Shown here: piece after piece, positions 1 to 48,624 of the stretch
Position numbering within the stretch: the stretch's first letter is position 1
How the letters are laid out: every line of letters begins with the position of its first letter
From: Candidatus Pacearchaeota archaeon
GTDB taxonomy: Archaea; Nanobdellota; Nanobdellia; Pacearchaeales; GW2011-AR1
Assembly (NCBI GenBank): GCA_002688875.1
Contig: NZDU01000041.1
Span: 1 to 48,624 of the forward strand
Length of the DNA: 48,624 nt
Direction: 5' to 3'
Program-made: the position numbers and the translations under genes
Notes under the pieces: generated by a model
What the model saw: the letters and a program-made list of their open reading frames with translations, nothing else
What the model was told of the DNA's origin: nothing
Databases searched by the model: none

Positions 1-423
1 CTTCTCTTCCTCAGTTTTCTCTTCTTTCTTCTCTTCAACTTTTTCAGTTTTCTTCCCACTTTCAACAACAGCTTTAGCCTTCTTCTTCAACTCCCTACTC
101 CTCTTAAACTTCAAAACATCTGGAATATCAACCAACTCCACCCTCACAATCCCATCATCATACTTAACAGCCTTAACCTTAATCCGAGCCGGAGGTTTCT
201 TCTCCCCTCTAAACCTCATCTCATTATTCAAATCAACATCCAACTTTATCTTACCAAGATCTTTATCATAAACCTTCATATGATTCACTAAAAATTCCTT
301 AAGCGTCTTAACAGTCTTCCTACTCCTCTTATATTTAGGAACCTTCAACCATCCCTTCCTAAGCGGAACAATATACTCACGCGACAACACAACCTTGCTC
401 TCAACTTTTTTCTCTTTCGCCAT
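1..423 (-). CDS. rpl31e: 50S ribosomal protein L31e (eL31); 3' end runs off the window
   Basis: Own translation from ATG at 423: MAKEKKVESKVVLSREYIVPLRKGWLKVPKYKRSRKTVKTLKEFLVNHMKVYDKDLGKIKLD... This fits the eL31 pattern. The frame is open to position 1. It is absent from the ORF track because there is no stop in the window. Confidence 0.85.
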   Translation of the reverse strand, partial: MAKEKKVESKVVLSREYIVPLRKGWLKVPKYKRSRKTVKTLKEFLVNHMKVYDKDLGKIKLDVDLNNEMRFRGEKKPPARIKVKAVKYDDGIVRVELVDIPDVLKFKRSRELKKKAKAVVESGKKTEKVEEKKEEKTEEEK

Positions 424-430
424 TTTCTAA

Positions 431-637
431 TTATCCCAACTGAGGCTTCCTCTGCCTTCTAGGTTTAATTTTTAATTTTGTCCTTCTCCAATTCCTTCTT
501 ATACTTGTTATAGCCGAAGGATGCACCCTTTTCCCACTTCCATACTTCCTCAAAACAGCCCAAACCGGCGCCCACTTCGTTCTCTTCCCAGCTTTACTCA
601 ACTTAATCTTCCTTTGCTGTTTTCGTTTTTCTCTCAT
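431..637 (-). CDS. rpl39e: 50S ribosomal protein L39e (eL39)
   Basis: KLSKAGKRTKWAPVWAVLRK...RRNWRRTKLKI matches the eL39 core. ATGA overlap with the upstream ORF. Confidence 0.85.
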   Translation of the reverse strand: MREKRKQQRKIKLSKAGKRTKWAPVWAVLRKYGSGKRVHPSAITSIRRNWRRTKLKIKPRRQRKPQLG

Positions 638-1065
638 TGTTTAACCACTCCACTATTTAATGATTCTAAATATTTAACCAATTTACTCCTCTTTTCCTTT
701 ACAATTTCTTTTAACTCATTAGGAATATGAGAAAAATTATCTGCAAAATAAAATCCAGGGTCGCCCCTCACTTTTAATCCTGTACTATTATCTTCACCAT
801 TCAAAAATACAACTACACCATCATAATCAGCCCTAGGATTTCTATCTTCATCTTTTTTATAGGCCACAAGTAATGGATTAAAATTATCAAGTTTTATAAC
901 AGCTCCTTCACGATTCCCAGGTACCATTGGTTTCACTTCATAATTTCCAGATTCATACACAATTTTATACTCACCCCTACTTCTTACTGGGAATAATTCA
1001 AAACAACTTTCCCCATCAACAAATCTAAGTCCTCTATGTTTATCTAACGTAGCATTTCCTATCAT
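634..1065 (-). CDS. Hypothetical protein (143 aa), unskewed codon class, embedded in the r-protein operon
   Basis: ORF track. ATGA overlaps at both ends (1062-1065 with rps19e, 634-637 with rpl39e). Codons end in A/T, unlike the neighbours. No family recognised. Confidence 0.6.
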   Translation of the reverse strand: MIGNATLDKHRGLRFVDGESCFELFPVRSRGEYKIVYESGNYEVKPMVPGNREGAVIKLDNFNPLLVAYKKDEDRNPRADYDGVVVFLNGEDNSTGLKVRGDPGFYFADNFSHIPNELKEIVKEKRSKLVKYLESLNSGVVKQ

Positions 1066-1481
1066 TCTATCCCCTCCATAAATTCCTTACCTTTATCCGT
1101 CAACCTTCTCCCAGCTCTCTTCCCACTCTCATTAAATCTCTCAATCAACCCCTCACTCTCCGCCTGTTGCAACAAAACTCTAATCATCTTCCCACTAGCC
1201 TTCTTAAATTTCTCAGGCTTCATACCCCGATTCTTCTTACTTCCATACCTAGTCTTCAACCTATTAACTCCCACAACATTCTGAACATAAATCTGCCGAA
1301 GTATACTCGCCGCCCGCTTAAACCAAAAATCATTATCAAGCGGAGGCAACTTCTTACTCAACCCACTCTTAACATACAAACTCCACTCCGGCTGCTCAAA
1401 CCCCTCCAACTTCTTAAGAGCCTCAGCTAACTTAGAATTATACTCATTCGCATTCATCGAATACACTATACTGGTTTTCAT
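1062..1481 (-). CDS. rps19e: 30S ribosomal protein S19e (eS19)
   Basis: NSKLAEALKK...PEWSLYVKSG...DFWFKRAASILRQIYV..VGVNRLKTRYG...LLQQAESEGLI is the typical eS19 pattern. Confidence 0.9.
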   Translation of the reverse strand: MKTSIVYSMNANEYNSKLAEALKKLEGFEQPEWSLYVKSGLSKKLPPLDNDFWFKRAASILRQIYVQNVVGVNRLKTRYGSKKNRGMKPEKFKKASGKMIRVLLQQAESEGLIERFNESGKRAGRRLTDKGKEFMEGIE

Positions 1482-1699
1482 TTTTTGTTTTACACTCCAT
1501 CAGGCATCCCTTTCGGAATTAGATAAGCTCGCAGAGCAAATTAACCTAATTATATCTAGAAAAAGAGTTTATAAATCTTACTCTATTGTTCTTATCATGA
1601 AAAATTCATCTAAAAAAATGACAAACCTCTTAAATCTCTTACTTCTAATAGCATATATATCTTTATTAATATTCATAATAATAAATCTATTATCATAAA

Positions 1700-1930
1700 A
1701 TGTCAGGCCCAGGATTCGGAAAAAAACTCTTAGGAAAAGCAAATGTCTATATCCACGAAAAAGGCAAAAGCAACGCACGCATCACTCATATAGACATAGA
1801 ACTCCCCGAACTAAACAAAATAATAAAACCAAAAGAACCAACCTATGTCCAAGGAAAACCTGGAGGGGTATTCATAGGATTAAAAAAGGAAATGATTAAG
1901 AGAGCCGAGGAATTATTAGACAAAGATTAA
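1700..1930 (+). CDS. Hypothetical small protein (76 aa)
   Basis: ORF track. Codons end in A/C, as expected for a resident plus-strand gene left of the skew switch. Confidence 0.45.
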   Translation: MSGPGFGKKLLGKANVYIHEKGKSNARITHIDIELPELNKIIKPKEPTYVQGKPGGVFIGLKKEMIKRAEELLDKD

Positions 1931-1974: not shown

Positions 1975-2715
1975 ATTATAATGCGCCCGTAAAACTATCC
2001 AGCCTTTAGGCTGTGGATATAAGGGCGCGCGACAGTAGAAACGCTTTTACAATTCTAAGTATTAATAAAAGAGAGTTAGATTGTAACTCTCTCTAGAATT
2101 TCCAGTGATAGTTAGAACTTTCTCAAACTAATTAAATCTTTCTCTTGCTATTGCAAGAGAAAAAAGGAGACAAAAATGAAACAACAAACACTTAGCGAGA
2201 GCTATAAAGAAATTAAATATGAGAAGATCAACCATATGGTTGGAATGTCGATGTGGCACTTTGAGTGGTGCTCAAAGTATAGATATAAAGCTTTCAGGAA
2301 ATGGAAGTACAAAAAGTTAGCAGAAGGTTGCTTACGAAAGGCAGCAACCGAGTATGGAATCAAATGGTTTGAGCTTGATGTTCAACCAAACCATGTTCAT
2401 GGGAGCGCATCCATTCCAATGACCATGACTCCTTCAAAGGCTTTAGGACTTTTGAAAGGAAGAGCATCTAAACTGTTCTTTGAGAGGTGTCCAAATATGA
2501 GACTTCGATACAAGAAGGGGCATTTGTGGAGTCGAGGAAAGTTTGCAGCTTCATTAGGATTTGTCAATCTTGATGTAGTGAACAATTACATCAAGAATCA
2601 AGACAAACATCATAAAACAAAGTGGATTACGGAGTGACTAGAGGTTAGGAAGCTGGGGTCCGGAGCGAAGCGGAGGACTGGCCCGAAGGGCCACCCTTTA
2701 GGGCCCAGAGGATGT
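1975..2715 (+). mobile_element. IS200/IS605-family element (tnpA only); ends approximate
   Basis: tnpA is flanked by GC-rich imperfect hairpins. Left: gcgccc(1983-1988)...gggcgc(2023-2028), enclosing tatccagcc/ggctGTggata. Right: GUCC-GGA-GC-GAA-GC-GGA-GGAC (2658-2678), ggccc-gaa-gggcc (2680-2692), and the alternative gggcc...ggccc (2688-2706). Confidence 0.55.
2176..2637 (+). CDS. tnpA: IS200/IS605-family Y1 (HUH) transposase TnpA, or a RAYT-like relative
   Basis: WHFEWCSKYRYK..., HUH motif in QPNHVHGSASIP, and LWSRGKFAASLG. C-terminal helix VVNNYIKNQ aligns with the catalytic-Tyr helix of IS608 TnpA (VVKQYIENQ). 153 aa. Confidence 0.85.
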   Translation: MKQQTLSESYKEIKYEKINHMVGMSMWHFEWCSKYRYKAFRKWKYKKLAEGCLRKAATEYGIKWFELDVQPNHVHGSASIPMTMTPSKALGLLKGRASKLFFERCPNMRLRYKKGHLWSRGKFAASLGFVNLDVVNNYIKNQDKHHKTKWITE

Positions 2716-2750
2716 CACAAAGTATGTATTAGAGTTTAAAAGTGTATCTT

Positions 2751-3122
2751 TTATTTATGGATAAATTGCATTATGTGTAAGGTTAGGATGGCGAATCCTG
2801 CTGCTATTCTTATGATTCTTGTTAGTTGTCTTTTTATTGTTGCGTTTGGATGTTCGAAGATTCTTGCTAGACCTTCGACGATTAGAAATACTCCTGCTAA
2901 GAAAGCTAGGATGTCTATGATTATTGGATCTAAGTAACTGCAAGCGTTTAAGGATTTTTGGCCGTTGAGTTGGACTGTTATTGCAAGGATGATTGCTATA
3001 AGAGATGTTAGTAGAGTTGTTAGTAGAGTTGTTAGTAGAGTTGTTAGGATTGTTTTTTTGAGATTTGTTGAAATGTTCTTTTGAGATTTTTTATTTTTAG
3101 ATATTTTTTCCCTCTTTTTCAT
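2751..3122 (-). CDS. Small membrane protein with a (TTLL)n repeat
   Basis: Lys-rich N-terminus followed by hydrophobic segments. A/C-ending codons, the resident minus-strand pattern right of the switch. Confidence 0.55.
   Translation of the reverse strand: MKKREKISKNKKSQKNISTNLKKTILTTLLTTLLTTLLTSLIAIILAITVQLNGQKSLNACSYLDPIIIDILAFLAGVFLIVEGLARIFEHPNATIKRQLTRIIRIAAGFAILTLHIMQFIHK
3007..3049. repeat. 12-bp tandem repeat gttagtagagtt, about 3.5 copies, inside the CDS
   Basis: Read directly at 3007-3018, 3019-3030 and 3031-3042, plus a partial copy. Encodes TTLLTTLLTTLL. Confidence 0.9.
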
Positions 3123-3491: not shown

Positions 3492-4385
3492 ATGAAACAT
3501 GTTGAAATGAGGGATAGAGTGGGAACTTTGCTTAGAAAAGATCTTTCTATAGATGAGATCTCAAAAAAATTATCCATTCCAGTTGGGACTCGGTATCAAA
3601 AAGGAAGCGTTAAATGGTATAAGTATTGTTTAGTAGCTAAAGAAAATCAGAAAAGGGCCATCGAGAAACATTCTGATTTGTATAGTCGAGCTGGGAAAAT
3701 TGCTCAACAAAAGCATCCTTGGTTGGGGAGGATGTTGGGTAAGAAGTATGGTCCTATTCAGGGAAAGATAAATGCTAAAAGATTGAAGGGAAATTCTGAT
3801 TATTTCTCGAAAATGGCTAAGAAACTACATAAAATTAATATAAATCATTCTAGAGATAACATGAGGAAAGCTCATGAAACAATGAAGAAGAAAGGAACTT
3901 TTATTGAGCATCAAAGAAAGGCTGCTCTAAAATGTATGGAAAAAAACCCTGGTCAGTTAAAAAATATGTCTAAGGTAGCACATGAAAAGTATTCATTGGC
4001 ATTGTTAGCCCTTGAGAGTAAAAGGAGAAATTATCCTTATAGGTTTATGAATTGTAGTTTTGATTCAAATGAAGAAATGATATTTTGTGAGAAATTAGTT
4101 GAGTTTGGATTAATTGAAAGACCTATTGAGGGGTTAAATGTTCATTTTAGGATTGGAAGATCTCATGTTGATTTTTTTATTCAAAATAGGATATTTATTG
4201 AATATCATCCTCCGAGGAAGTTTGGTAGAGTAATAGAAACAGAAGAAAGCTACCATAATGATAGGAGGAGTTTGTTAAATGCCTATGGATTTAGTAACTA
4301 TCCTTTAATTGTTGTTTCTAATTTGAGGGAGGCCGAGGATAAATTAATGAATGTTAAGAAGCTTATCCAGAATCTTGAAAATTAA
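3492..4385 (+). CDS. HTH protein with NUMOD3-like basic repeats and a C-terminal Vsr/DUF559-like PD-(D/E)xK nuclease-like domain (homing-endonuclease-like)
   Basis: N-terminal LSIDEISKKLSIPVGT (HTH). Repeats such as NHSRDNMRKAHETMKKKG and EHQRKAALKCMEKNPG. C-terminal FDSNEEMIFCEKLVEFGL...GRSHVDFFIQNRIFIEYH. The function call is inference. Confidence 0.55.
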   Translation: MKHVEMRDRVGTLLRKDLSIDEISKKLSIPVGTRYQKGSVKWYKYCLVAKENQKRAIEKHSDLYSRAGKIAQQKHPWLGRMLGKKYGPIQGKINAKRLKGNSDYFSKMAKKLHKININHSRDNMRKAHETMKKKGTFIEHQRKAALKCMEKNPGQLKNMSKVAHEKYSLALLALESKRRNYPYRFMNCSFDSNEEMIFCEKLVEFGLIERPIEGLNVHFRIGRSHVDFFIQNRIFIEYHPPRKFGRVIETEESYHNDRRSLLNAYGFSNYPLIVVSNLREAEDKLMNVKKLIQNLEN

Positions 4386-5643
4386 TTACACTAAAAACTT
4401 TATGCCCTTTTTTTTCAAGTTTTTCCCTTCCGCCTAGGTCATCTAATTCAATAATAAAGGCTATTTCTTCAATCTTACCTTCTAATTTTTGAATTAATTC
4501 AGCCGATGCAAGAGCGGTACCTGCAGTAGCCACCAAGTCGTCGACTAGTAATATGTTTTGGTCGGGTTTTATTGCGTCTTTGTGGATTTCTACTTTGTCG
4601 GTTCCGTATTCTAATTGGTATTCGTGGCTTATTGTTTCGTATGGGAGTTTGTTTGGTTTTCGTATTGGGATTAGTCCGATTCCTAGTTTGTCTGCTAGAA
4701 TTCCTGCGATTATGAATCCACGGGCTTCGATTCCTGCTATGGCGTCGATTGGTTGGTCTTTGTAGCGGTTGTAAAGGATGTTGATTGTTCTTTTCATTGC
4801 TTCTGGATCTAATAATAAGGTTGTTATGTCTCGGAACATGATTCCCGGTTTTGGGAAGTTGGGGATTGTTCTGATTTTGCTTTTTATTAATTGTTGATCT
4901 TTTTTTGCAATTTTTGGGATGACGTTTGTTAGAAGAGTTTTTACTTTTTCTGCGTTTTGTTTCATTGTTTGCATTACCATTTCGAAAGTTACTGGGAATT
5001 CGTCTTCTTTCCAACAATCGTAGTCGGTTGACATTGCTATGCTTGCGTATGGGATTTCTAGTTCCACTGCTAATTGGGCTTCGGGGCATGTGGTCATTCC
5101 GATGATGTCGGCAAAGTTTTTGAACATGAACGATTCGGCTTTTGTTGAGAATCTTGGGCCTTCAATTACCACTATTGTGGCTTTGGAGTGGTGGTTGTAG
5201 TTGAGAAGTTTGGTTTCTTCTATTAGTAATTGTCTTAATTCTTTTGAGAAGGGTTCTGCTGAACTTATGTGTCTTACATCTCCGTATTGATCAGAGAATG
5301 TAAGTTTTCTTAATTTGGTTTGATCTATGAATTGATCTGGGAAAACTAGGTGGCCTGGTTTGATTTCTTCCTTTAAACTGCCAACTGCGCTTGTGGCTAG
5401 GATGTGAGTGCAACCTTCTTGTTTTAGGGCTTTGATGTTGGCTCGGTAGTTTACTTTGGTTGGATAGATCTCATGGTTTTTCCCGTGTCTTGCTAGTATT
5501 ACTACTTCTACTCCGTTTAGTTTACCACATGTTAATTTTGAGCTTGGATCTCCGTAAGGTGTTGTTATTTCTTTTTCGGTGTAGTTTTCTATGAGGTTTG
5601 GGTCGTCTAAACCAGAGCCTCCTATGATTCCTATTTTTACCAT
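4363..5643 (-). CDS. mtnP-apt: Bifunctional fusion: 5'-methylthioadenosine/purine nucleoside phosphorylase (N-terminal, about 4900-5643) and adenine phosphoribosyltransferase (C-terminal, about 4366-4899)
   Basis: N-terminal KIGIIGGSGL...ILARHG...YRANI.AL...GMTTCPEA.LA.E (MTAP/PNP family). C-terminal IRTIPNFPKPGIMFRDITTLL...GIEARGFI...ILLVDDLVATAGT (APRT PRPP motif). Single ORF of 426 aa. Confidence 0.85.
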   Translation of the reverse strand: MVKIGIIGGSGLDDPNLIENYTEKEITTPYGDPSSKLTCGKLNGVEVVILARHGKNHEIYPTKVNYRANIKALKQEGCTHILATSAVGSLKEEIKPGHLVFPDQFIDQTKLRKLTFSDQYGDVRHISSAEPFSKELRQLLIEETKLLNYNHHSKATIVVIEGPRFSTKAESFMFKNFADIIGMTTCPEAQLAVELEIPYASIAMSTDYDCWKEDEFPVTFEMVMQTMKQNAEKVKTLLTNVIPKIAKKDQQLIKSKIRTIPNFPKPGIMFRDITTLLLDPEAMKRTINILYNRYKDQPIDAIAGIEARGFIIAGILADKLGIGLIPIRKPNKLPYETISHEYQLEYGTDKVEIHKDAIKPDQNILLVDDLVATAGTALASAELIQKLEGKIEEIAFIIELDDLGGREKLEKKGHKVFSVINFQDSG

Positions 5644-5705: not shown

Positions 5706-8177
5706 TCAGTATTTATAATGTTCAGATTTGTAAGGGCCTTCGATTGGGATTCCGAGATAGTCTGATTGTTCTTTGGTGAGGGTTGAGAGTTTTACGCCTA
5801 GTCTTTCTAAATGTAGTCGGGCTACTTCTTCGTCTAGTTTTTTTGATAGCATGTAGACTCCGATGGGGTAGTTTTTTTGCCAGAGATCGATTTGGGCTAG
5901 GACTTGGTTTGTGAAGGAGTTGCTCATTACGAAGCTTGAGTGGCCTGTTGCGCATCCTAGATTTACTAGACGTCCTTCGGCTAGAATAAAAATTTCATGT
6001 GATGAGAAGATGTATTTGTCGACTTGGGGTTTGATGTTCAGCCTTGTTATGTCTTGGGCTTGATTTAGTTTTTCCATTTGGATTTCGTTGTCGAAGTGGC
6101 CGATGTTGCAGACTATTGCTTGATCTTTCATGTTTCTCATGTGTTCTAAGGTTATCACGTCTTTGTTTCCAGTTGTTGTTACGTAGATGTCTCCTTCCTT
6201 TAGGGAATCTTCTATCGGTTCAACTTGGAAACCTTCCATAGCTGCTTGTAATGCATTTATTGGGTCGATTTCATTTACTATGACTTTTGCACCGAAGCCA
6301 CGCATGCTTTGGGCGCAGCCTTTTCCTACGTCGCCGTAACCGCAGATGACTGCCGTTTTTCCGGCGATCATTACGTCTGTTGCTCGTTTGATTCCATCGG
6401 CTAGGCTTTCTCGGCATCCGTAAAGATTGTCAAATTTGCTTTTTGTTACTGAATCGTTTACGTTGATTGCGGGGAAAAGTAGTTTTTTTTGTTCTAGCAT
6501 TTGATAGAGTCGATGAACTCCGGTTGTGGTTTCTTCAGAGACCCCTTTGACTTCTCTTCCGATTTTGTGCCAGAAGTTTGGGTCTTCTTGGTATGTGGTT
6601 TTTAGTAAATTCATTAGTTCTCTATAGTCTTCTCCTTCGCTTGAATAATCTTGATTTAGTAAAGATGGGTTGTCTTCGATTTCCATTCCTTTGTGTATCA
6701 TTAGTGTTGCATCACCACCATCGTCTACTATTAGTTGAGGGCCTAGTCCGTTTTTGAAATCTAGGGCGTCTTTAGCTAATTCCCAGTATTCTTTTAGTGT
6801 TTCACCTTTCCAAGCGAAAACTGGGACTCCTATTTTGGCTATTGCTGCTGCGGCATGGTCTTGAGTTGAGAAAATGTTACAGGATGCCCATCTTATGTCG
6901 GCACCTAATTCTTTTAGAGTTTCAATTAGGACTGCGGTTTGGATAGTCATATGTAAGCTTCCAGTGATTCTTACATTTTGTAGTGGTTTTTCTAGTTGAT
7001 ATTTTTTTCTAATGGCCATAAGTCCTGGCATTTCTTTTTCGGCTATTGTGATTTCTTTTCTTCCGAAATCTGCTAGAGAAATATCTTTGATTTTATAATC
7101 TGGATTGTTAGAAATTGTATTTGTATTGTAATTGGGTTTACTGAAATCTTGATTTTGAATTAATGCCTCTTCCATGTTATTTATTTGATTGTTTGAGTTT
7201 AAAAGCTTTATCTCAGTCTGTTGGATAGGTGTTAGTCTTGCCCCTTCGTTTTTTATTACCATTGATGCTATTTTGCTTGCTTGTTTTCCGGCTTCGGATA
7301 AGTGGATGTTGTTTGCTATTCCGTGGAGAATTCCTGCGGCGTATGCGTCTCCGGCTCCGTTGGTGTTTACTACAATTGTTTTTTCTGGTTCTATCCTATG
7401 GACTTCATTGTTTGTTTTGATTAGGCTTCCTTTTTCTCCTAGTTTTACTATTGCTATCTCGGCATGGTCTGCGATGTCGTGTAGGGCTTGTTCTGGGTCT
7501 TTTCCGGTGAAGGCTTTTGCTTCGTCTTCGTTTAGGAAGATTATGTCTACGTGTTCTTTTACGAATTCCTTGAAGAATTGATGGTCGTTTTTTATTATTG
7601 TTGCATCGGATAGGTCTATCGATATTTTGGTTTGGTTTTGTTTTGCTATGTTCACTGCGTGTAGGATGACTTCTTTTGATTTTGGTGCTGCTAGTTGGTA
7701 TCCTTCTAAATGAAGTATTTTTGAATTGGTTATTATGTCGTGGGATAGAGTTTCTAAGTCGAGTTCTGCTGAGGCTCCTAGGTGTGTTGCGAAGGATCTT
7801 TCACCGTCGGGAGTTATTAAGGTTATGGCGTGTCCTGTTGTCTCGTTTTCATGTTTTGATAATTTAGAGGTTGTTACGGTTTCAGAGGTTTTTGTTTCGT
7901 AGATATTTCCATGAGGGTCGTTTCCTATTTTTCCGAAGAAGGCTGTTTTTCCTCCAAGATTTGAAACGCTTGCAATTGTGTTCGAGCAACTTCCTCCAGG
8001 GATTAAGCTTGAAGAATGGAATTCTAGTCTGTCTAATATCGATTTGCTTTCTTCTTTGTTTATTAGTTTCATCTCGCCTTTTTTTAGTCCTAATTCTTGT
8101 AAAAGAGATTCGTCTACATTGTATACTAGATCTAATATTGAATTTCCTATACCAGAAACGTCGTACTCTTTTTCCAT
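5706..8177 (-). CDS. ahcY: Bifunctional fusion: PfkB-family adenosine kinase (N-terminal, about 7230-8177), Asn/Gln-rich linker (about 7104-7229), and S-adenosyl-L-homocysteine hydrolase (C-terminal, about 5709-7103)
   Basis: N-terminal [31 protein letters not shown]...[12 protein letters not shown] (PfkB). C-terminal [28 protein letters not shown]...[16 protein letters not shown]...[11 protein letters not shown]...[12 protein letters not shown] (SAHH with NAD site). Single ORF of 823 aa. Confidence 0.85.
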
Positions 8178-37585: not shown

Positions 37586-37588
37586 TGG

Positions 37589-40630: not shown

Positions 40631-40651
40631 TTTGTGATGGAAATTAATTTA

Positions 40652-40827: not shown

Positions 40828-41262
40828 TTAGTCTCTTTGATAGTTTTCTATTTTTCTGAAGGGTTTATATCCAATTTCTTCTGATATTTCTAATACTTCA
40901 AAATCTATTTTGTATTTTTTATGGTCAGTAAATCTGTGTGGAAAGTCCATGAATTTGATACCCCATCCTTTATCTGTCATAGTTTCTAATTTTTCATCAG
41001 GGATTTCAACCAATCCTTTTTTTACTTTTCTGGAAATGTTTTTCTTCATGAATTTGTGAGCAATTAGATGGTTTGTAAAAAGAGGGATTATTACTTTTCC
41101 GTTTTCTTCTCTTAGTGCAAGTAAGGGGAGCCATCCTTCATTTATGCATTCATATCTAATGTTTTGGGTAGAAAGATTTCCGTCATTATATAGAATTGCG
41201 TATTGTTTTTTTGTTGGTTCTTTTCTTTGTTCGGATGTATTGTCTGGTATATTTCGTAACAT
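40828..41262 (-). CDS. Hypothetical protein (144 aa), unskewed class
   Basis: ORF track. TATA-like cttaaataatt (minus strand) lies about 25 nt upstream. Confidence 0.5.
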   Translation of the reverse strand: MLRNIPDNTSEQRKEPTKKQYAILYNDGNLSTQNIRYECINEGWLPLLALREENGKVIIPLFTNHLIAHKFMKKNISRKVKKGLVEIPDEKLETMTDKGWGIKFMDFPHRFTDHKKYKIDFEVLEISEEIGYKPFRKIENYQRD

Positions 41263-41340
41263 TTTTATTATTGGAAATTTAATTATTTAAGTATTGTGTT
41301 TAGAATGGGCTGATTTTAATTATTGTTTGTTAGTTGTTAG

Positions 41341-41898
41341 TTATCCCTTGTTCTTCTCAGCTTCCTTTAGTGTAGCTACGAGTTGGTCCATTGAATCTGC
41401 TAGTTGTTGGTTGTTTTTTGTTCCGGTGCAGACTAGCTTTCCGTTTGAAAATAATAGGAAGGTTGCTGGGGGGTCGACTAGTTTATAGACTAGGCCTGGG
41501 AATTGTTCGGGTTCGTATTCTGTGTTTTCGAGTTCTAGTGATAAGTAGTTTAGATTTAGCATCATGTCGATGCTTCCGGATGCTACGATGTTTTGGACGG
41601 TTATTTTTGGTTTGTCTGTTATTTTGACGTTGATTTTTTTTAGGGTTTTGATTACTTGCTCTATGACTTCTTTTACTTGGGCTATTGATTTGGTTCCTGT
41701 GCAGACTAAATTTCCAGAGGAGAAGACTAGGACTGCTGATTTTGGTTCTTTGACTCTTAGAACTAGTCCTGGGAATTGTTCGGGATTGTATTCGGTGTTG
41801 GGGATTGTTTTTGCTAGTTTGGTTAGTGGGACGTCTTTACCAAGAGAAGTTGTTGCTACGATGTTTTGGATTTTTGAAGAAACTTTTGATTTTGCCAT
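41341..41898 (-). CDS. tbp: TATA-box binding protein
   Basis: Two direct repeats: IQNIVAT...YNPEQFPGLVLR...LVFSSGNLVCTG and VQNIVAS...YEPEQFPGLVYK...LLFSNGKLVCTG. Confidence 0.95.
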   Translation of the reverse strand: MAKSKVSSKIQNIVATTSLGKDVPLTKLAKTIPNTEYNPEQFPGLVLRVKEPKSAVLVFSSGNLVCTGTKSIAQVKEVIEQVIKTLKKINVKITDKPKITVQNIVASGSIDMMLNLNYLSLELENTEYEPEQFPGLVYKLVDPPATFLLFSNGKLVCTGTKNNQQLADSMDQLVATLKEAEKNKG

Positions 41899-42069
41899 TT
41901 GTTACTTGATAGTGTTAATGATAAATCTAGATTGGTTTGGTTTATAAAGGTTTTGTTTCTTGATTTTTTTGTCGACGGTGGTTATGATGGAGTGGGGGAA
42001 GGTTTTTAAAGGTGGGATGTTGTTTTTTGGTTTCATAAATATTATAAATGGATAATTATTATATGATTC

Positions 42070-42525
42070 ATGGAACTTGATTCAAGTGTGTTAACAGGTT
42101 ATTTGAGAGATTCTGTTCGGGATATTGGGAAAATTAGAGGTAGATTATATAGGATTCAGGGAAATCCTAATTTTCAAGGAGAGCCATTTACTTTAGATGT
42201 TTCTGGTGGGTTGGATAAGGTTGTGAGTAGTATGCAGGATCTTCAAAGGAAAAATAGACTTTCAACTTGGGATAAAGATAATGTGGAACCGTATGATTTT
42301 AAGATATTTAGTGCTGGTTATAACTTTTGTAATGATGTTATGCTATATTTTTTATTTAATGGGAATGTTCCAGAAGATAATTTGAGGGGGGTTGTGGGAA
42401 GGATTAAATTAAGAGGGGCTGATGAGTTATCTAGAGTGATTGAATATGCGGGTAGTGTTGAAAAGAAGATTAGTCATTATAGAGGTAAGTTGAATGAAGA
42501 AAGAAATGTTAGTATGGTTCAATAA
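42070..42525 (+). CDS. Hypothetical protein (151 aa), unskewed class
   Basis: ORF track. TATA-like attataaat lies about 25 nt upstream. Confidence 0.5.
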   Translation: MELDSSVLTGYLRDSVRDIGKIRGRLYRIQGNPNFQGEPFTLDVSGGLDKVVSSMQDLQRKNRLSTWDKDNVEPYDFKIFSAGYNFCNDVMLYFLFNGNVPEDNLRGVVGRIKLRGADELSRVIEYAGSVEKKISHYRGKLNEERNVSMVQ

Positions 42526-42542
42526 TGTATTTTCAATTCATG

Positions 42543-44276
42543 TCAGTTGTAGTCGTTGGCTATTTCTTTGAGTTTTGCGATGTCGTGTAATCCCATGTCA
42601 TCTCTTACGATTGTGATTCTTGGGAAACGTAAGGCGAATCCTGATTTGTAAGTTGGGGAGCGTTGGATGTTTTGATAAATTATTCTGACTATTATTTTTG
42701 GTTTGATGGTTACTTGTCTGCCTGATTCTTTTGTGACTAAAGGTAATAGTTTGTTGGTTAGTTCTTGGTATGATAGGCCTAGTTCTTCTTTTTCTTTTAG
42801 GCCTGTTGAGGCTTTTCCGATTTCTAGGAAGTTTCCTTGTTCGTCTTTGCAGGATAGAGTGAATGATGATAGGATTCCAAAGCGTTTTCCTTTTCCGTAT
42901 TCGGCTGCTGTGATTACTAGGTCGAGTTCGTTTTCTGCTGGTTTTAGTTTTAGCATGTGGCCGACTCTGGCTCCGGGGCTGTATTCAGAAGTGAGGTTTT
43001 TTATCATTAGTCCTTCTTGATTGTCTTTTAAGGCTTCTTTGTAAAAATCTTGGGCTTCTTTTTCATTGCTTGTTATGATTTGATGTGAGCATCTGATTTT
43101 GTGTTTGTAAGGTTTGATGAGTTTTCTCATGAGGCTTGTTCTTTTTTTGAAAGGTAGTTCTAGAAGGCTTTTTCCGTTGAGGTAGAGAATGTCGAAGGTG
43201 TTGATTTCTATTGGGAGTTGTTTGATTAATTGGTTTATATTGTGTTTTCGTCTGATACGTTGGGAGATTGCTTCGAACGGTTTGTATTTTTTTGTTTTAG
43301 GGTCGAAGCCTATGGCTTCGCTTTCAATTATGAAACTTTTTGCTTTGATGTGTTCGTTTATATATTGCACTACTTCTGGGAATTGTTTTGTTACTTCGTC
43401 TAAACGTCTTGTGAATAGTTTGATTTCTCCTTTGTCATCTTTGTTAATTAGCATTCTGAATCCGTCGTATTTATATTCGAATGCCGCGGGTTTGCCGACA
43501 CGTTTGAATCCGTCCTCGATGCTATCTGCTTTTAGGGCTAGCATTTGTCTCATTGGATGTCCTGGATTTAGTTTGATTTTTTTTAATTCTTTTATACCTC
43601 TCGAGGCTTTTTCGAAGACTAGTAGGAAGTCGCTTGTTTTGTCGTAGGCTTCTTGGACGGCTTGTGTGAACTTTTTTTTGTTTTCAGAATCCAAGACACC
43701 TAACGGTTTCTTAGATGTATCTTCCCTAGAATTTGCCTTAAAAAATGTTTTTATTATTGAATCTCTGATTGTTCCGGATGCTACTCCGATTCTTAAATCT
43801 CCTATGAGTGTTCTGATGATGTATTTTGCTTCTTTGCCTGATGCGGAAGTTAGTAGTTCTGAGATTAATGAGAGTTTTTTGTCAACGGTTCCTTTGCCTT
43901 CGAGTTCTGGGAGTTTTTTGATGTTTTCTAGAACTTTTTTGGTTGTTATTTTTTCGGAGAACAATGTGTTTTGTTTCTTTTTGTTTATGATTTGTTCTGC
44001 TACTTTTCCTAAGTCACCTAGCTTTTTCCAGTGTTCTATTATTATGTCTGATGAAAGTCCTGATGCTTTGCTTAATGCTTTGATGCAGAGTTTTTCGGAT
44101 ATTCCAAGTTCTTTTTCGGAATAATCTGGATAGGCTTTTCCTTGGATTAGATAGATAGTTTCTAAGTCGTCTTTTTTTAGGGTTTTTAAGAAATCTGAAA
44201 GTATCTCAGTTTTTTTTAATCTTGAAGGGTTTTCTTCTAGGTTTTCATATAGGTTTGTTAGAGTTTGGTAGTCCAT
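42543..44276 (-). CDS. lig: ATP-dependent DNA ligase (Lig1 type)
   Basis: Motif I is EYKYDGFRM. The full DNA-binding, adenylation and OB-domain length is present (577 aa). Confidence 0.9.
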   Translation of the reverse strand: MDYQTLTNLYENLEENPSRLKKTEILSDFLKTLKKDDLETIYLIQGKAYPDYSEKELGISEKLCIKALSKASGLSSDIIIEHWKKLGDLGKVAEQIINKKKQNTLFSEKITTKKVLENIKKLPELEGKGTVDKKLSLISELLTSASGKEAKYIIRTLIGDLRIGVASGTIRDSIIKTFFKANSREDTSKKPLGVLDSENKKKFTQAVQEAYDKTSDFLLVFEKASRGIKELKKIKLNPGHPMRQMLALKADSIEDGFKRVGKPAAFEYKYDGFRMLINKDDKGEIKLFTRRLDEVTKQFPEVVQYINEHIKAKSFIIESEAIGFDPKTKKYKPFEAISQRIRRKHNINQLIKQLPIEINTFDILYLNGKSLLELPFKKRTSLMRKLIKPYKHKIRCSHQIITSNEKEAQDFYKEALKDNQEGLMIKNLTSEYSPGARVGHMLKLKPAENELDLVITAAEYGKGKRFGILSSFTLSCKDEQGNFLEIGKASTGLKEKEELGLSYQELTNKLLPLVTKESGRQVTIKPKIIVRIIYQNIQRSPTYKSGFALRFPRITIVRDDMGLHDIAKLKEIANDYN

Positions 44277-44333
44277 CTTTTTTATAGAAAAGGTTGGTAG
44301 GTTTTTATAGGTTTAGATAAATTAGATTTTGGT

Positions 44334-44615
44334 CTAGAGTTCTTCCACTTCGCAAGGGGTTGAAATGGCTTCTAATCCTGATGATGATATATCTTTTCCT
44401 TTGTTATTTCTTAAGGTATATCTAGTTATTCTTTCTAATGGTATTTCTAGATTAAGTTCTGTATCTTCTCCTCCTACTCCTACATAAAATACTTTTAATA
44501 AGCTTATATAACCTTTATATTTTCCAGTAGGTTCTTGATTTGTAGTCCATTCTAGATATATTTCGTCACGTATATTTGCATGTTCTAAAAATTTATCTCT
44601 TTCTTCATCATTCAT
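44334..44615 (-). CDS. Hypothetical protein (93 aa), unskewed class
   Basis: ORF track. Confidence 0.45.
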   Translation of the reverse strand: MNDEERDKFLEHANIRDEIYLEWTTNQEPTGKYKGYISLLKVFYVGVGGEDTELNLEIPLERITRYTLRNNKGKDISSSGLEAISTPCEVEEL

Positions 44616-44656
44616 ATTTTGTTATGGTTTAAAAAGTATAAAAAGATTGTTATGTT

Positions 44657-45055
44657 ATGGTGTTGGATTATATTTTTGTGTTGGCTGTGATTGGGTTTTT
44701 GTTGTCGTTGTATTTTTATTTTGTTGGTAGGAGGTTGTTGGTTGATAGGAATTATAGGGCTGGATGTGATTTGAGTGAGGGGGTTTCTTGTACGAAGGTT
44801 GCTAGTAGTGATTATAGTAAGATGTTTGGTTTTTCTAATGCTTTGATTGGGATTGGGTTTTACTTAATTGTTTTGTTGTTGGCTTGGTTTTCGATTTATA
44901 ATTGGTTGTTTTGGTTGGAATTGTTTGCTTCGTTATTTTCGGTTTATTTGATTTATTTGATGTTTAGGATTAGGTTGTTGTGTGTGGTTTGTGTTGGGAT
45001 TCATGTGGTGAATTTTTTGTTATTGTGGTTGAGTTATGTTAGGGTTTTTGGGTAG
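44657..45055 (+). CDS. VKOR-family (vitamin K epoxide reductase-like) membrane thiol oxidoreductase
   Basis: Loop cysteines C..SEGVSC, then SKMFGFSNALIGIGFY, and CVVC in the last helix. Confidence 0.7.
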   Translation: MVLDYIFVLAVIGFLLSLYFYFVGRRLLVDRNYRAGCDLSEGVSCTKVASSDYSKMFGFSNALIGIGFYLIVLLLAWFSIYNWLFWLELFASLFSVYLIYLMFRIRLLCVVCVGIHVVNFLLLWLSYVRVFG

Positions 45056-45065
45056 TTGGTTAGAA

Positions 45066-45557
45066 TTAGAATGGAGTCCAGATTCCTTGATTGAATTTAA
45101 TTTCTGGAGGATTTGCAGTTTCTTGAAGTCTTTTTGCGGATACGTATTTCTGGATATAGCATATATAGCTGATTAATTGATCATTGTATTCCCTAAAAGT
45201 TACTGTTTGATTTTTTGATCTTTTATATTTTTTAAATTGTAATCTAATTCGGTTTTTAACTATGTGGTCCTCATCAGCTATTTTTTCAATTTCTCTAATT
45301 TGTTTTTCTTTGATACCTTTTCTAGGATAGCTGAATGCATTTCCATTTTTAAAAACTATTATTTTATTTGCTCTATCATCTTCCAAGAAATCTTGGAGTA
45401 ACCATCTAGAATTTGCATAAACTATTGGTTTTGTAATTCTGCAATAACTTGGTGTTGTATTGTTTGGATCATTTGTGTTGCTTATTCCCCAATAATTGAG
45501 ATATTCAACATATTTTTCAAAAGTGATAGTTTCGAATTTAAAATCTCTGAGGTCCAT
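45066..45557 (-). CDS. Hypothetical protein (163 aa), unskewed class
   Basis: ORF track. Confidence 0.5.
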   Translation of the reverse strand: MDLRDFKFETITFEKYVEYLNYWGISNTNDPNNTTPSYCRITKPIVYANSRWLLQDFLEDDRANKIIVFKNGNAFSYPRKGIKEKQIREIEKIADEDHIVKNRIRLQFKKYKRSKNQTVTFREYNDQLISYICYIQKYVSAKRLQETANPPEIKFNQGIWTPF

Positions 45558-45602
45558 AAAATATATTCTTAAAAATTTATTTATTAATCTTGTATAGTAA
45601 GT

Positions 45603-46172
45603 TTATTTTCCTCTTCGTTTCCCTGCACGTACACTAGGTCTTGATTTGTTGGTTGGGGATTTGTCTCTTAATCCTCGGGATTTTCTTGCGGCGCTTGTTT
45701 TGCCCCTTAGGGCTCGTTTTTGGTTGGCTTTTTTTGTGAGGAATTTTGTTTCTTTGTTGTTTTTGATTTCTGGTTTGCTGTAGTCGACTAAGATTACTTC
45801 GAAGAAATAATGGATTCCATCTTTGGCTAGGTTGTATGAGTTTAAGACTTCTAGGTTTGGGTATTTTCTTTGGGCTCTTTGTTCGGCTATCCATTTGTAG
45901 CTCATCTTGACTACTTTTTTGTTGGTTGTGTTTTTTGATCTTCTTGCTTTGTTTTTTGTTTCTCTTTTTCTTCCTCCTCTTCTTAGTCTGACTCTTACTA
46001 CGACGAATCCTTTTTTGGCTTTGTAACCTAGGCTTCTTGCACGGTCTAGTCTTGTGGGTTTATTGATTTTTAGGATTGTTGGTTGTTTACGCCATTCGAT
46101 CATCAGTTCTCTGAGTCTAGCTGTGTCTGGTTTTTTCCATGCGTTTCTTAATTGGTGGTAGAGTCCTTTCAT
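45603..46172 (-). CDS. rpl15e: 50S ribosomal protein L15e (eL15)
   Basis: MKGLYHQLRNAWKKP...EWRKQPTI..I.KPTRLDRARSLGYKAKKGFVVVRVRLRRGG is the eL15 signature. Confidence 0.9.
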   Translation of the reverse strand: MKGLYHQLRNAWKKPDTARLRELMIEWRKQPTILKINKPTRLDRARSLGYKAKKGFVVVRVRLRRGGRKRETKNKARRSKNTTNKKVVKMSYKWIAEQRAQRKYPNLEVLNSYNLAKDGIHYFFEVILVDYSKPEIKNNKETKFLTKKANQKRALRGKTSAARKSRGLRDKSPTNKSRPSVRAGKRRGK

Positions 46173-46231
46173 GGAAATGAGAGATAAATTGTGTTTTTAA
46201 AGGTTTGGGAGGGGATGGGGGGTTTGGGAGA

Positions 46232-46305
46232 TGGTCCTGCCAAGTCCAGAGATTGGAAATCTCTGGCTCTTCAGATTCTGACGAATCTTCAGATTTTGAA
46301 CTTGG
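46232..46305 (-). pseudogene. Fragmentary second copy of the tRNA-Ile 3' part (T-arm + acceptor 3' strand), interrupted by a 47-nt insert
   Basis: The minus strand reads CCAAGTTCAAAAT[47 nt]CTTGGCAGGACCA, against CCAAGTTCAAATCTTGGCAGGACCA in the intact tRNA. No 5' half is present. Confidence 0.6.
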
Positions 46306-46331
46306 AAGTGGAAATTAAGAATCTTAACGGG

Positions 46332-46354
46332 ATACTATTTCTTTGAAATAGTAT
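46332..46354. other. Perfect 10-bp hairpin atactatttc-ttt-gaaatagtat, 1 nt beyond the tRNA-Ile 3' end
   Basis: Read directly. The palindrome ttaagaAtcttaa follows at 46315-46327. Confidence 0.6.
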
Positions 46355-46355
46355 A

Positions 46356-46430
46356 TGGTCCTGCCAAGATTTGAACTTGGGACCCCCGCCTTATCAGAGC
46401 GGTACTCTAACCTGGCTGAGCTACAGGACC
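46356..46430 (-). tRNA. tRNA-Ile (GAT)
   Basis: Manual cloverleaf: GGTCCTG-TA-GCTC-AGCCAGGTTA-GAGT-A-CCGCT-CTGATAA-GGCGG-GGGTC-CCAAG-TTCAAAT-CTTGG-CAGGACC-A. TATA cttataaac lies about 26 nt upstream. Confidence 0.9.
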
Positions 46431-46477
46431 ATGTAAGAACTTATTGGAATAGGTTTATAAGGGTTTTGATTATTTTA

Positions 46478-47188
46478 TCATCCTTGCAACTCAATAGTTA
46501 GAAAATCGTTTTTGAGTTTGTATCTTAGGATGGGGAGGTTGAGGTTTAGGCTTTTTGAGTAGAGGTGTTTGTTTGAGAGGGCTTTGATTTCGATTGAGTT
46601 TTCTAGTTGGTTGATTAGAATGTCTTCGACGGATTTGACTCCTGGGACGTGGAGTTCGTAGACGATTTTGTTTGAGATACGTTTTAGTTTTGATTGGGGT
46701 TCTTTTTTTGGGAGTTTTGAGGATTTTTTTAATTTGTCTGTGAATACTTTTGGGTCGATTCTGATTTGGTTTACTTGGGCTTGAGTTTGTTGTTGATTGT
46801 TTTGGTTATTGAGGTGTTGATTGTTTGGGTTGTTGAAAACTTTTTTACCGTTTACGAAGAATTGAATGTTTAGATCGTTGGGAAGGTTTTGTCGATGTCT
46901 TTTATTGCGGGGGTTCATGGGGTGGTTTGGGTTTCTTGCGACTTCTTCGTTTAAGTTTCTCATTTGGTTTTCTAGCATTTTCATTGCGGTGCTGAACATT
47001 TTGTCCATGAAAGAGTCTGAGAAATTAGGGAAGGAATCTTGGATTGGTTCTTCTACTGAGTCGTTTCTTCCTAGGAATCCGAAGTCTTCTTTTTCGAAGT
47101 TAGAGTTGAGGTCGCTACCACATGATGGGCAGAATTCAAAGTCTTTTCTGACTCTTGTGTTGCAATTAGAACATTTGTTTCCGAACAT
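46478..47188 (-). CDS. Zinc-ribbon protein with an Asn/Gln-rich linker and a C-terminal Hsp20/alpha-crystallin-like domain
   Basis: MFGNKCSNCNTRVRKDFEFCPSCGSDL, then NNPNNQHLNNQNNQQQTQAQVNQ, then VYELHVPGVKSVEDILINQLENSIEIKA...LNLPILRYKLKNDFLTIEL. Start moved to the ATG at 47188. Confidence 0.65.
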   Translation of the reverse strand: MFGNKCSNCNTRVRKDFEFCPSCGSDLNSNFEKEDFGFLGRNDSVEEPIQDSFPNFSDSFMDKMFSTAMKMLENQMRNLNEEVARNPNHPMNPRNKRHRQNLPNDLNIQFFVNGKKVFNNPNNQHLNNQNNQQQTQAQVNQIRIDPKVFTDKLKKSSKLPKKEPQSKLKRISNKIVYELHVPGVKSVEDILINQLENSIEIKALSNKHLYSKSLNLNLPILRYKLKNDFLTIELQG

Positions 47189-47255
47189 GGTAATGTTAAT
47201 GATGGTTGATTTAAAAGGTTTTGGATGGGGTTTGGTTGGAATTAGTATTGCATTA

Positions 47256-47343
47256 GTTCCACATCCCACTTCGTTGGGATGTTTCACTTATTTTATTGGT
47301 ATCTGATAATAACATTTATATCGAGATGTAAGTGATTTTTTTT
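47256..47343 (+). repeat. Modular intergenic element, copy L6 (hairpin + M1 + TATA-like + M2)
   Basis: Hairpin catccca-CTTCG-ttgggatg (47262-47281), attggta (47295-47301), tctgataataac, then gagatgtaagtgatttttttt (47323-47343). Confidence 0.75.
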
Positions 47344-47472
47344 AGATGGTAGGTTTTTTGGTTATATTGGTTTTTGTTAATTTTACCTATTTTATCGGTT
47401 GTTTCTGTTTTAGGAAAAACTTTTTAAATGGGTTGTGTTGGTATGTTTAGGTAAGGAGCTGAATGTGATAAA

Positions 47473-48177
47473 ATGACAGAGAACAAAATGACGGATTTGG
47501 ATTCTCGTAAGGATGAGCTTGCGAAGAAGTATGGGATTGATTTTGATAGTTTGGAGAGGGAGCAGGTGAAGTTGGCTAGGGATGTTGTGGTTAGGGATGG
47601 GTTTGATATGGGGTTGGTTGAGAGGTATGGGGCGGTTGAGAGTGTGTTTGTTGGGAATCGTATATTGTCGTGTGTTGTGGTTTGTGATAGGGATTTTGAG
47701 ATAGTTGATCAGGCTTATGTGATTGATAAGGTTAGGTTTCCTTATTTTCCGGGGTTTAGGAGTTATAGGGAGTTGCCTTCGATGATTGCGGCGTTTGAGA
47801 AGCTTCGGGAGAGGCCGGATGTTATGTTTGTTTCGGGGCAGGGAGTGATTCATCCTAGATTGGGGTTGGCTAGTCATTTTGGGATTGCTTCGGGGATTGC
47901 TACTATTGGGGTTTCTGGTTCTTTGGTTGGGTGTGAGACTGGGGATAATGATGGGGATGATATTGTTCGTGATGGGAAGAGGATAGGGAAGGTGTTGATT
48001 GGGAAGGAAGGGAGTAAGCCTTTGTTTATTAGTCCTGGGCATAATATTGGGGTTGATAGTTCGTATAAAGTTTCTAGGGAGTTGATTAAGTTGCCACATA
48101 AAAGGCCGGAGCCGATTCATTTGGCTAGTAAGTATGCTAAGGAAGTTAGGAAGGAGTTGGATGTTGGGATTAAGTGA
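47473..48177 (+). CDS. nfi: Endonuclease V (deoxyinosine 3' endonuclease)
   Basis: FPYFPGFRSYRELP, GQGVIHPRLGLASHFG and IGVS motifs. Confidence 0.85.
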   Translation: MTENKMTDLDSRKDELAKKYGIDFDSLEREQVKLARDVVVRDGFDMGLVERYGAVESVFVGNRILSCVVVCDRDFEIVDQAYVIDKVRFPYFPGFRSYRELPSMIAAFEKLRERPDVMFVSGQGVIHPRLGLASHFGIASGIATIGVSGSLVGCETGDNDGDDIVRDGKRIGKVLIGKEGSKPLFISPGHNIGVDSSYKVSRELIKLPHKRPEPIHLASKYAKEVRKELDVGIK

Positions 48178-48565
48178 AGTTTTTTATTCTTGGTAAGACT
48201 AAACGTGCTATAAGGGCTATTATTGAGAGGCTTAGGATTCCGACGATGATTACGTATATGAAGTATGAGCTTGTGGTGTAGAGTTCGCCTTGTTGGATTG
48301 CTTCGGTTGGGGGTTTTGGTGGTTGGTTGTTAGTTTCTTTTTGGTTATCTTGGGTTGATTTTTTATTTTCCTCTAGTTGGTTTTCTTGATCTTCTAGTGG
48401 GGGTTCGTTTTCTATTGCTAGTCCGGTTAGTCCTTTTATTTTTATGTTCTGGTTGATGTTTAGGTCTTCTTCTAAGATTCCTATTACGTTGAAAGTTAGT
48501 AAGAGGGCTACGGCTGTTATTGAGATTGACATTACTAGTGTGAAATGTTTGTTGTCTAGGATCAT
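48170..48565 (-). CDS. Membrane protein (131 aa) with terminal TM helices and an Asn/Gln/Glu/Pro-rich middle
   Basis: ORF track. A/C-ending codons. Confidence 0.5.
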   Translation of the reverse strand: MILDNKHFTLVMSISITAVALLLTFNVIGILEEDLNINQNIKIKGLTGLAIENEPPLEDQENQLEENKKSTQDNQKETNNQPPKPPTEAIQQGELYTTSSYFIYVIIVGILSLSIIALIARLVLPRIKNFT

Positions 48566-48624
48566 TGTTTTTCTTCGGGGTCGAAGTCTATGGCTAGGTA
48601 GTCGCCTTCTTTTAGTTTGAATCT
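48562..48624 (-). CDS. C-terminal fragment of an unidentified gene (runs off the window)
   Basis: Own translation ends ...RFKLKEGDYLAIDFDPEEKQ*. ATGA overlap with the next gene. Confidence 0.3.
   Translation of the reverse strand, partial: RFKLKEGDYLAIDFDPEEKQ

Follow-up and report, generated by a model that had tools for sequence, protein, structure and literature searches.

Extreme enrichment of G and T on one strand across 46 kb of a marine Pacearchaeota chromosome

How far can the two strands of a cellular chromosome diverge in base composition, and what drives them apart? This question is raised by a 48,624-nt stretch of a Candidatus Pacearchaeota genome (contig NZDU01000041.1, taken in its full length and called the window below), which has 12,007 A, 5,868 C, 12,072 G and 18,677 T on its plus strand (37% G+C). 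The window is cellular chromosome DNA, not a virus or plasmid. Its host is a marine Pacearchaeote (DPANN archaea), because its MCM protein finds its matches in such genomes and identical contigs occur in marine metagenomes: the MCM search led to 46 related loci (L numbers below) in genomes labelled Pacearchaeota, Woesearchaeota or Nanoarchaeota, and contigs 99.99-100% identical to the window were found in Tara Oceans and other marine metagenome assemblies. Gene identities were assigned by Pfam and NCBIfam, and the housekeeping set is archaeal; all the gene names proposed in the initial annotation, which was made from the sequence alone (GatD, GatE, GatA, Trm5, endonuclease V or EndoV, MCM, ligase, TBP, a decarboxylase and two fusion genes), found matches in one or the other database.

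From position 2751 to 48624 the plus strand is keto-rich (G+T) whatever the coding strand, with base frequencies of A.243, C.113, G.255 and T.389. Taken in successive 2-kb intervals, the GC skew is never below +0.13 or above +0.66 past the 2-kb mark, and past 3 kb T is always commoner than A. Computed gene by gene at fourfold-degenerate sites, the skews are extreme and not modest, with GC skew of 0.40 to 1.00 and TA skew of 0.17 to 0.90 in plus-strand coordinates, both positive in 29/29 confirmed genes right of 2751; the G+T-rich, C-poor plus strand that the initial annotation had described from about 2.75 kb to the end is thus a measured property of the overall composition and of every gene. 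Pooled fourfold sites have A.091, C.022, G.360 and T.527 in plus-strand genes, and A.137, C.022, G.283 and T.558 in minus-strand genes read in the same coordinates, so that the excesses of G over C and of T over A fall on the same strand. When these skews are resolved into components, the strand accounts for 0.870 of GC skew (bootstrap 95% confidence interval 0.840-0.896) and 0.655 of TA skew (0.622-0.684), against 0.015 and 0.049 for gene orientation, and restricting the analysis to the five four-codon amino acids leaves these components unchanged. Because the strand component so exceeds the orientation component, the bias is strand-wide: it belongs to the DNA strand and not to the genes. It is also centred on neutral sites, being strongest at fourfold sites, weaker in intergenic DNA (GC skew above zero in 22/22 segments; pooled +0.41 for GC and +0.17 for TA) and weakest at codon positions 1 and 2. 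Along the 46 kb there is no significant slope in G/(G+A), in T/(T+C) or in either skew (P 0.14-0.28).

Transcription-coupled mutation or repair, or selection on codons or proteins, might be invoked for the small orientation component (0.05 for TA, 0.015 for GC), but the plus-strand sign is the same for plus- and minus-strand genes in 29/29 cases, the preferred codons of the two strands are opposites, and intergenic DNA carries the same skew. These processes are refuted as the main cause, a role that we give practically no chance, and since they are excluded a strand-wide mutation bias remains. We conclude that the bias is mutational and acts with a lag, counting in support an unskewed copy of an IS200/IS605-family insertion sequence (IS) at 1975-2719, to which we return below, and three genes that are clearly less skewed than their neighbours, viz., those for FtsZ (28407-29489), a PIN protein (20748-21125) and TrmB (22518-23261). 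The weaker skew of these genes possibly reflects recent transfer or recombination, or an extra constraint on their synonymous sites. FtsZ is also the gene closest at the DNA level to the low-skew relatives (72-81%). The two tRNA genes, both on the minus strand, tRNA-Asn(GTT) at 30645-30719 and tRNA-Ile(GAT) at 46355-46431, have ordinary composition, and there selection overrides the bias.

Could such a composition be an artefact of assembly or sequencing chemistry? The same sequence was recovered independently by ENA/Tara, by JGI and by Logan. Window positions 1975-48593 coincide with an ENA contig of 46.6 kb; over 2.5-9 kb, the window is matched at 99.99-100% identity by one Tara scaffold and by one contig each from Logan and JGI; and its left end is also covered in part by contigs of NCBI, JGI and Logan. 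Moreover, reading frames are intact and conserved, the tRNAs are normal, and the same kind of skew recurs in related genomes from other projects, including L003, which is ~93% identical over 10.4 kb. What can be said for an artefact is the unconfirmed join at the IS (1975-2719); for the skew itself this explanation, which the initial annotation had raised, is refuted, and its probability is as good as nil.

The imprint of the bias on the coding content is deep. As the initial annotation had noticed, plus-strand genes favour G/T-ending and minus-strand genes A/C-ending codons: third positions are 87% G/T in the former and 84% A/C in the latter. For Phe, TTT/TTC counts are 185/2 in plus-strand and 25/172 in minus-strand genes; for Lys, AAA/AAG counts are 103/285 and 564/39; and for Asp, GAT/GAC counts are 274/5 and 72/191. 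In the genes of the keto-rich strand NNT is almost exclusive in two-codon families (Asn AAT/AAC 148/7), and, given the GTT and GAT anticodons of the two tRNAs in the window, these codons are presumably read by wobble. The proteins follow suit in the direction proposed earlier, with Val (9.9 vs 4.4%) and Gly (9.4 vs 5.5%) higher in plus-strand genes, and Thr (2.6 vs 6.0%), Gln (1.3 vs 4.2%) and Asn (3.8 vs 6.1%) higher in minus-strand genes, about 1.6- to 3-fold differences. Because the two gene sets encode different proteins, orthologues were compared too: across 239 window-relative orthologue pairs from ten genes, which are non-independent, keto content at codon positions 1+2 changes 0.12 times as much as it does at fourfold sites (r = 0.80). 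The slope within the conserved MCM is 0.06, and the clearest protein shift is that of the EndoV homologue, with a keto content at positions 1+2 of 0.578 in the window vs 0.483 in relatives. The three low-complexity inserts singled out in the initial annotation are all present: a Gly/Asp/Glu insert in GatE (GGKGGSGKGGGGDGSDEDDNDENDEDG; 14627-14707, plus strand), an Asn/Gln insert in a zinc-ribbon protein (NNPNNQHLNNQNNQQQTQAQ; 46775-46834, minus strand) and the Asn-rich linker of a PfkB kinase+SAHH fusion (~7050-7199, minus strand).

A further consequence is seen opposite the genes. Plus-strand genes avoid TTA, CTA and TCA, and because of this long open reading frames (ORFs) run antisense to them; the codon-aligned antisense frame has 0-9 stops in plus-strand genes vs 6-101 in minus-strand genes. 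The effect claimed for the antisense of plus-strand genes is hence real, but its extension to every such gene was overstated, since zero stops are found only in TYW3 and EndoV. These minus-strand ORFs, which we regard as spurious, include one of 333 aa opposite GatD (9954-10955) and others opposite Trm5 (21175-21981), TYW3 (26911-27579) and EndoV (47410-48120); none of the antisense ORFs tested has a Pfam match. Mirror-image codon dialects, stop-free antisense frames and amino-acid drift would all follow mechanically from a mutation bias of the strand, the proposed drift being towards Val/Gly/Asp/Arg-rich proteins on one strand and Thr/Gln/Asn/Pro/His-rich proteins on the other, low-complexity inserts of matching flavour included.

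Strand asymmetry as such has clear precedents. In bacteria such as Borrelia burgdorferi, Blochmannia floridanus, Ehrlichia and Lawsonia, a keto-rich leading strand of the type described by Lobry likewise has G>C and T>A regardless of gene orientation, with the strongest effect at fourfold sites and with codon and amino-acid usage split by strand (PMC2099444, PMC2671203). Morton and Morton surveyed replication-dependent fourfold skew in 352 bacterial chromosomes in 2007 with the indices RG and RT (PMC2099444), which are essentially normalised skews and were compared with the strand component of the window. The maxima of that survey belong to Blochmannia floridanus (RG 0.433, RT 0.107, composite 0.446) and Borrelia burgdorferi (0.229 and 0.300), with E. 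coli at 0.07 and 0.02; the window, with a composite skew of 1.09, reaches about twice the value of the strongest, which bears out the earlier impression of a strength unusual for a cellular chromosome (PMC2099444). The differences from these bacteria therefore lie in strength (0.87/0.65, composite 1.09, vs maxima of RG 0.433, RT 0.300 and composite 0.446) and in the host, an archaeon, for which the link to an origin is one that we infer.

The classical account of mitochondrial asymmetry holds that C and A are deaminated where DNA is exposed as a single strand. Fourfold sites of vertebrate mitochondrial genes follow the order T>G>A>C on one strand, with A>C>T>G on its complement (PMC4182315); the rank order in the window is identical and its gene composition likewise inverts with the coding strand, so that the parallel drawn in the initial annotation is well founded. 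The window differs in being part of a cellular chromosome with ordinary archaeal replication genes and with both polarities present, in lacking a positional gradient over 46 kb, and in the prominence of G<->T transversions. A third comparison, which takes in other UBA1400 Microgenomates as well, is with Ch65, an ultra-small uncultured CPR prokaryote (CPR, Candidate Phyla Radiation; Kadnikov et al., 2020), which has a very large G/C disparity across its whole chromosome (C 29.8% vs G 15.0%, a skew of about 0.33; no A/T disparity) with genes on both strands, and for which unusual replication was proposed (PMC7143001). The window combines an overall skew of 0.39 with a disparity of 0.23 between T and A (in 2751-48624, T is 38.9% and A 24.3%), and it differs further by a switch of polarity. 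Archaeal skews are usually weak, and those at the oriC of Euryarchaeota are so too. The latter, as GC-skew inversions, nonetheless resemble the present case in being replication-linked skews of archaeal chromosomes, and 18/224 archaeal genomes in RefSeq, all Euryarchaeota, show a peaked pattern of bacterial type, as also does one DPANN genome (PMC7111523). The literature searched yielded neither a report of such skew in Pacearchaeota, Woesearchaeota or DPANN nor an archaeal skew of comparable strength; the phenomenon is of a known kind, and what that literature does not report is such a strength, such a host and a graded spread over close relatives.

This spread is apparent from the relatives, some of which have hardly any skew and others a skew as extreme as that of the window, with one polarity or the other. 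In 42 Pacearchaeota the keto fraction at fourfold sites of the MCM orthologue runs from 0.14 (window and L003) to 0.88 (L012), GC and TA skews at these sites are correlated (r = 0.78), and GC skew in this one gene lies above the bacterial record in 14 of the 42. In the strongly skewed L003, L012, L035, L034, L006 and L026, plus- and minus-strand genes agree in sign throughout the locus, whereas low-skew relatives are nearly symmetric, with ~85-90% A+T at fourfold sites. Across loci, the loss of A on one strand tracks skew (slope -0.84, r = -0.93), the lost A being replaced by T (slope 0.55) and G (slope 0.45). The outcome varies: L045 is T-dominated (T.72, G.05), and the window lineage is unusual with its G near 0.3. 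Among the close low-skew pairs, which served as a baseline only (L010/L024 and L028/L029/L030), A<->T is the commonest synonymous difference and the transition/transversion ratio is ~0.5.

What kind of mutation is at work? The window and L003 share 901 fourfold sites, of which 180 differ; in terms of plus-strand bases these comprise 78 G<->T, 46 A<->G, 28 C<->T, 26 A<->T, and a single A<->C and C<->G each. Under the assumption of stationarity and reversibility, C to T is ~8 times as frequent as G to A on the plus strand, and A to G ~8 times as frequent as T to C, and these 8-fold biases fit deamination of C and A on one strand. The deamination signature claimed in the initial annotation fits the transitions and the base rank order; it does not cover the 78 G<->T against 1 A<->C, nor the finding that T takes the place of A no less than G does. 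An account by deamination of C and A alone is incomplete, and purine loss or oxidation, or an asymmetry of polymerase error, must also contribute.

We consider a strand-specific mutation bias, most likely linked to replication and near saturation, to be the probable best explanation. In this scenario, the plus strand from 2.75 kb would persistently lose C and A and gain T and G, whatever the direction of its genes. The keto-rich strand would be the sequence of the leading strand, i.e., of the parental lagging-strand template, which while single-stranded would gather deamination of C to U and of A to hypoxanthine; the same exposed strand would suffer purine loss or oxidation, read out as changes to T, and a reduced genome might repair such damage poorly. 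The version with purine damage would need no T to G changes if the substitution fluxes are cyclic. We infer both the chemistry of the lesions and the link to the direction of replication, the latter by analogy with bacteria and Euryarchaeota.

That the replication link would rest on analogy is one of several points that weigh against this explanation. As to the spectrum, the differences between the window and L003 are unpolarised and all 180 lie in minus-strand genes, and the loci compared include no other close pair that is strongly skewed. The ratio of G<->T to A<->C, 78:1, is beyond any strand-symmetric model of transversions (P between 0.023 and 4e-6), and therefore transversions are asymmetric too; similarly, deamination alone leaves unexplained why T dominates the skew in some relatives, L045 and L035 among them. 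As to the replication landmarks, just one polarity switch was seen, and a misjoin could account for it, as could an inversion or rearrangement mediated by the IS: none of the independent contigs spans both IS junctions with the flanks of the window, and L060 connects the same left flank via the IS to a different right flank. No replication origin was recognised either, as neither an Orc1/Cdc6 gene nor an ORB-like repeat family lies near the flip, where the repeats are at chance level.

The switch itself separates two domains. On its left, in positions 1-1930, the minus strand is the keto-rich one, as is evident from S19e, whose fourfold GC and TA skews are -0.90 and -0.80 in plus-strand coordinates (G.49, T.44, C.02 and A.05 on its own, minus, coding strand), and from L073, in which this domain extends at least 1.6 kb beyond the window (overall C 9%, G 28%). 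The domain holds L31e (cut), an L39e-like gene, a 143-aa ORF and S19e on the minus strand and a 76-aa ORF on the plus strand. On its right, the keto-rich plus strand continues for ~5.5 kb past the window in an 88%-identical strain (L084). The polarity switch falls exactly on the 745-bp IS200/IS605-family element (1975-2719, plus strand), which has tnpA only (2176-2637; transpos_IS200, 87 bits), is unskewed (fourfold GC skew 0.20, TA -0.23), and has copies of 100% identity in six or more other contexts in marine metagenomes. Contigs of other assemblies stop at its borders, and its left and right junctions are each backed separately (L065-L069; L058 and L062). The direction of the flip, from C-rich to G-rich along the plus strand, is that of an origin; however, because no contig spans the IS with the flanks of the window and L060 offers an alternative join, we dropped the claim that this multicopy element marks a replication origin. 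The orientation of IS copies was also rejected as a marker of replication direction, there being only four informative flanks, which conflict. Both polarities nevertheless seem to exist in the genome, to which L055, an IS-flanked contig with extreme skew of the opposite sign, would belong.

Three further observations concern the surroundings of the element. L064 (ENA ERZ909154) joins window positions 30648-31650 to 1583-2049, both parts 100% identical and in the same orientation, via a ~955-nt element that encodes an rve-type integrase, a structural variant or other arrangement in another sample. Adjoining the IS, the minus-strand ORF 2751-3122 encodes a small predicted membrane protein with a TLLT repeat, from a 12-nt tandem repeat in four copies (2993-3052), and the nearby 297-aa ORF at 3492-4385 has no family match.

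The occurrence of both polarities also bears on an unusual, strongly asymmetric mode of replication, whether unidirectional, by strand displacement as in animal mitochondria, or with uncoupled lagging-strand synthesis, in which one strand would stay single-stranded for long. The bias resembles that of vertebrate mitochondrial DNA in magnitude and in base rank order, one polarity holds over at least 52 kb, and the multicopy IS belongs to a family that transposes through single-stranded DNA. Such a mode has, moreover, been proposed for a CPR bacterium whose G/C disparity runs in one direction (PMC7143001). Yet domains of both polarities occur in the population (window 1-1930, L073 and L055), there is no gradient along 46 kb (all P > 0.1), and nothing in the window suggests a non-standard replisome, its MCM, RPA-like protein and ATP-dependent ligase being ordinary. 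We consider such replication, at which the initial annotation had hinted, quite improbable: it is not needed and lacks direct support.

A weightier rival, though still an unlikely one, places the asymmetry in polymerase errors or the nucleotide pool and not in template damage. Leading- and lagging-strand synthesis would differ in fidelity (e.g., PolB vs PolD), with no effective mismatch correction, and over-insertion of dGTP, dTTP or 8-oxo-dGTP in the more error-prone synthesis would make one nascent strand keto-rich in every class of substitution. Given stationarity and reversibility, every class is indeed biased to G/T on the plus strand, transversions included (78 vs 1, P = 0.023 or lower), and T to G on the plus strand is the largest class of polarised replacements at conserved codon positions (30/115). 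But that replacement spectrum is heavily filtered by selection, T to G being found 30 times in minus-strand genes and 0 times in plus-strand genes, on account of which we rejected it as evidence on the chemistry; and a non-reversible damage model (A to G, G to T, C to T and A to T) also yields many G<->T differences.

With a replication-linked mutation bias, fed by damage to the exposed template, as the preferred explanation, the state of repair becomes pertinent. The window encodes a divergent EndoV homologue (47473-48177, plus strand) that matches Pfam PF04493 with 141.5 bits, above cut-off, and NCBIfam with 131 bits, under the equivalog cut-offs of 230 and 300. Aligned with T. maritima EndoV, it keeps Tyr80 and Glu89 and has replacements at D43 (Glu), D110 (Ser), K139 (Gly) and H214 (Ser; T. 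maritima numbering); on the basis of the T. maritima structures, we take Tyr80 to be the wedge and D43, E89, D110, K139 and H214 to be catalytic. D110 and K139 are replaced in 16/16 Pacearchaeota orthologues and H214 in all but one, whatever their skew. To judge from these residues, the EndoV of this clade may be inactive or work differently, and the gene, presented in the initial annotation as the deoxyinosine nickase, is no evidence of working hypoxanthine repair. We also rejected the loss of its active site as the cause of skew differences between lineages: the loss is clade-wide and unrelated to skew, and because low-skew relatives share the degeneracy, it does not explain those differences.

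A bolder reading is that the chromosomes of Pacearchaeota evolve like animal mitochondrial DNA, either with a parental strand that stays single-stranded far longer or with nearly all repair of base damage in single-stranded DNA lost, i.e., of deaminated, oxidised and depurinated bases, of which the degenerate EndoV may be one sign. We hold this to be doubtful; were it true, no cellular chromosome would be known to have a stronger strand asymmetry, one genome would contain two codon dialects, and the clade would serve as a natural experiment for tracing the genes behind strand-asymmetric mutation in archaea. Irrespective of this, the replication-linked bias that we favour illustrates how far mutation pressure alone pushes a cellular genome: C has nearly vanished from one strand's neutral sites, and the make-up of the proteins has moved to a measurable degree, even where orthologous positions are compared. 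In practice, gene callers will list antisense ORFs that are spurious, binning by composition may break such genomes up, and phylogenies of these archaea may carry strand-dependent compositional artefacts. The gradation of skew from one close relative to the next also allows the replication or repair genes responsible to be sought directly by comparison.

The genes through which this bias was read are distributed over both strands. On the plus strand, those confirmed by Pfam/NCBIfam are for the IS200 transposase, an RsmB-like methyltransferase, GatD, an epimerase, GatE, a bacterial-type AspRS, a metallophosphoesterase, a GatC-like protein, GatA, the PIN protein, Trm5, TYW3, FtsZ, VKOR and the EndoV homologue. 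On the minus strand, they are for S19e, an MTAP+APRT fusion, the PfkB-kinase+SAHH fusion, DUF1003, TrmB, an Orn/DAP decarboxylase, a nitroreductase, a KH protein, eIF1A, eIF2beta, an RPA-like protein, a peroxiredoxin, MCM with an intein, TBP, an ATP-dependent DNA ligase, L15e and the zinc-ribbon protein.

A run of plus-strand genes with G/T-ending codons (9972-22017) is interrupted by the minus-strand DUF1003 gene (12623-13123), and consists of GatD (9972-11267), the epimerase (11554-12498), GatE (14153-15670), AspRS (15686-17110), the phosphoesterase (17070-17888), the GatC-like protein (17919-18164), GatA (18330-19787), PIN (20748-21125) and Trm5 (21157-22017). Its first part, at 9972-19787, clusters GatD, a short GatE (505 aa vs about 620-630), the bacterial-type AspRS, the GatC-like protein and GatA, with no GatB within the window. 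Mainly minus-strand genes with A/C-ending codons occupy 29955-47287, namely those for the nitroreductase, KH protein, eIF1A, eIF2beta, RPA-like protein, peroxiredoxin, MCM (37589-40630), TBP (41341-41898), DNA ligase (42543-44276), L15e and zinc-ribbon protein. The two fusion genes, MTAP+APRT (4363-5643) and PfkB kinase+SAHH (5706-8177), are adjacent on the minus strand, share the A/C-ending codons and belong to adenosine and methionine salvage, APRT being adenine phosphoribosyltransferase and SAHH S-adenosylhomocysteine hydrolase. Finally, the intein of MCM, of ~350 residues with a LAGLIDADG-like domain, is missing from most relatives, whose MCM matches span only ~2 kb.

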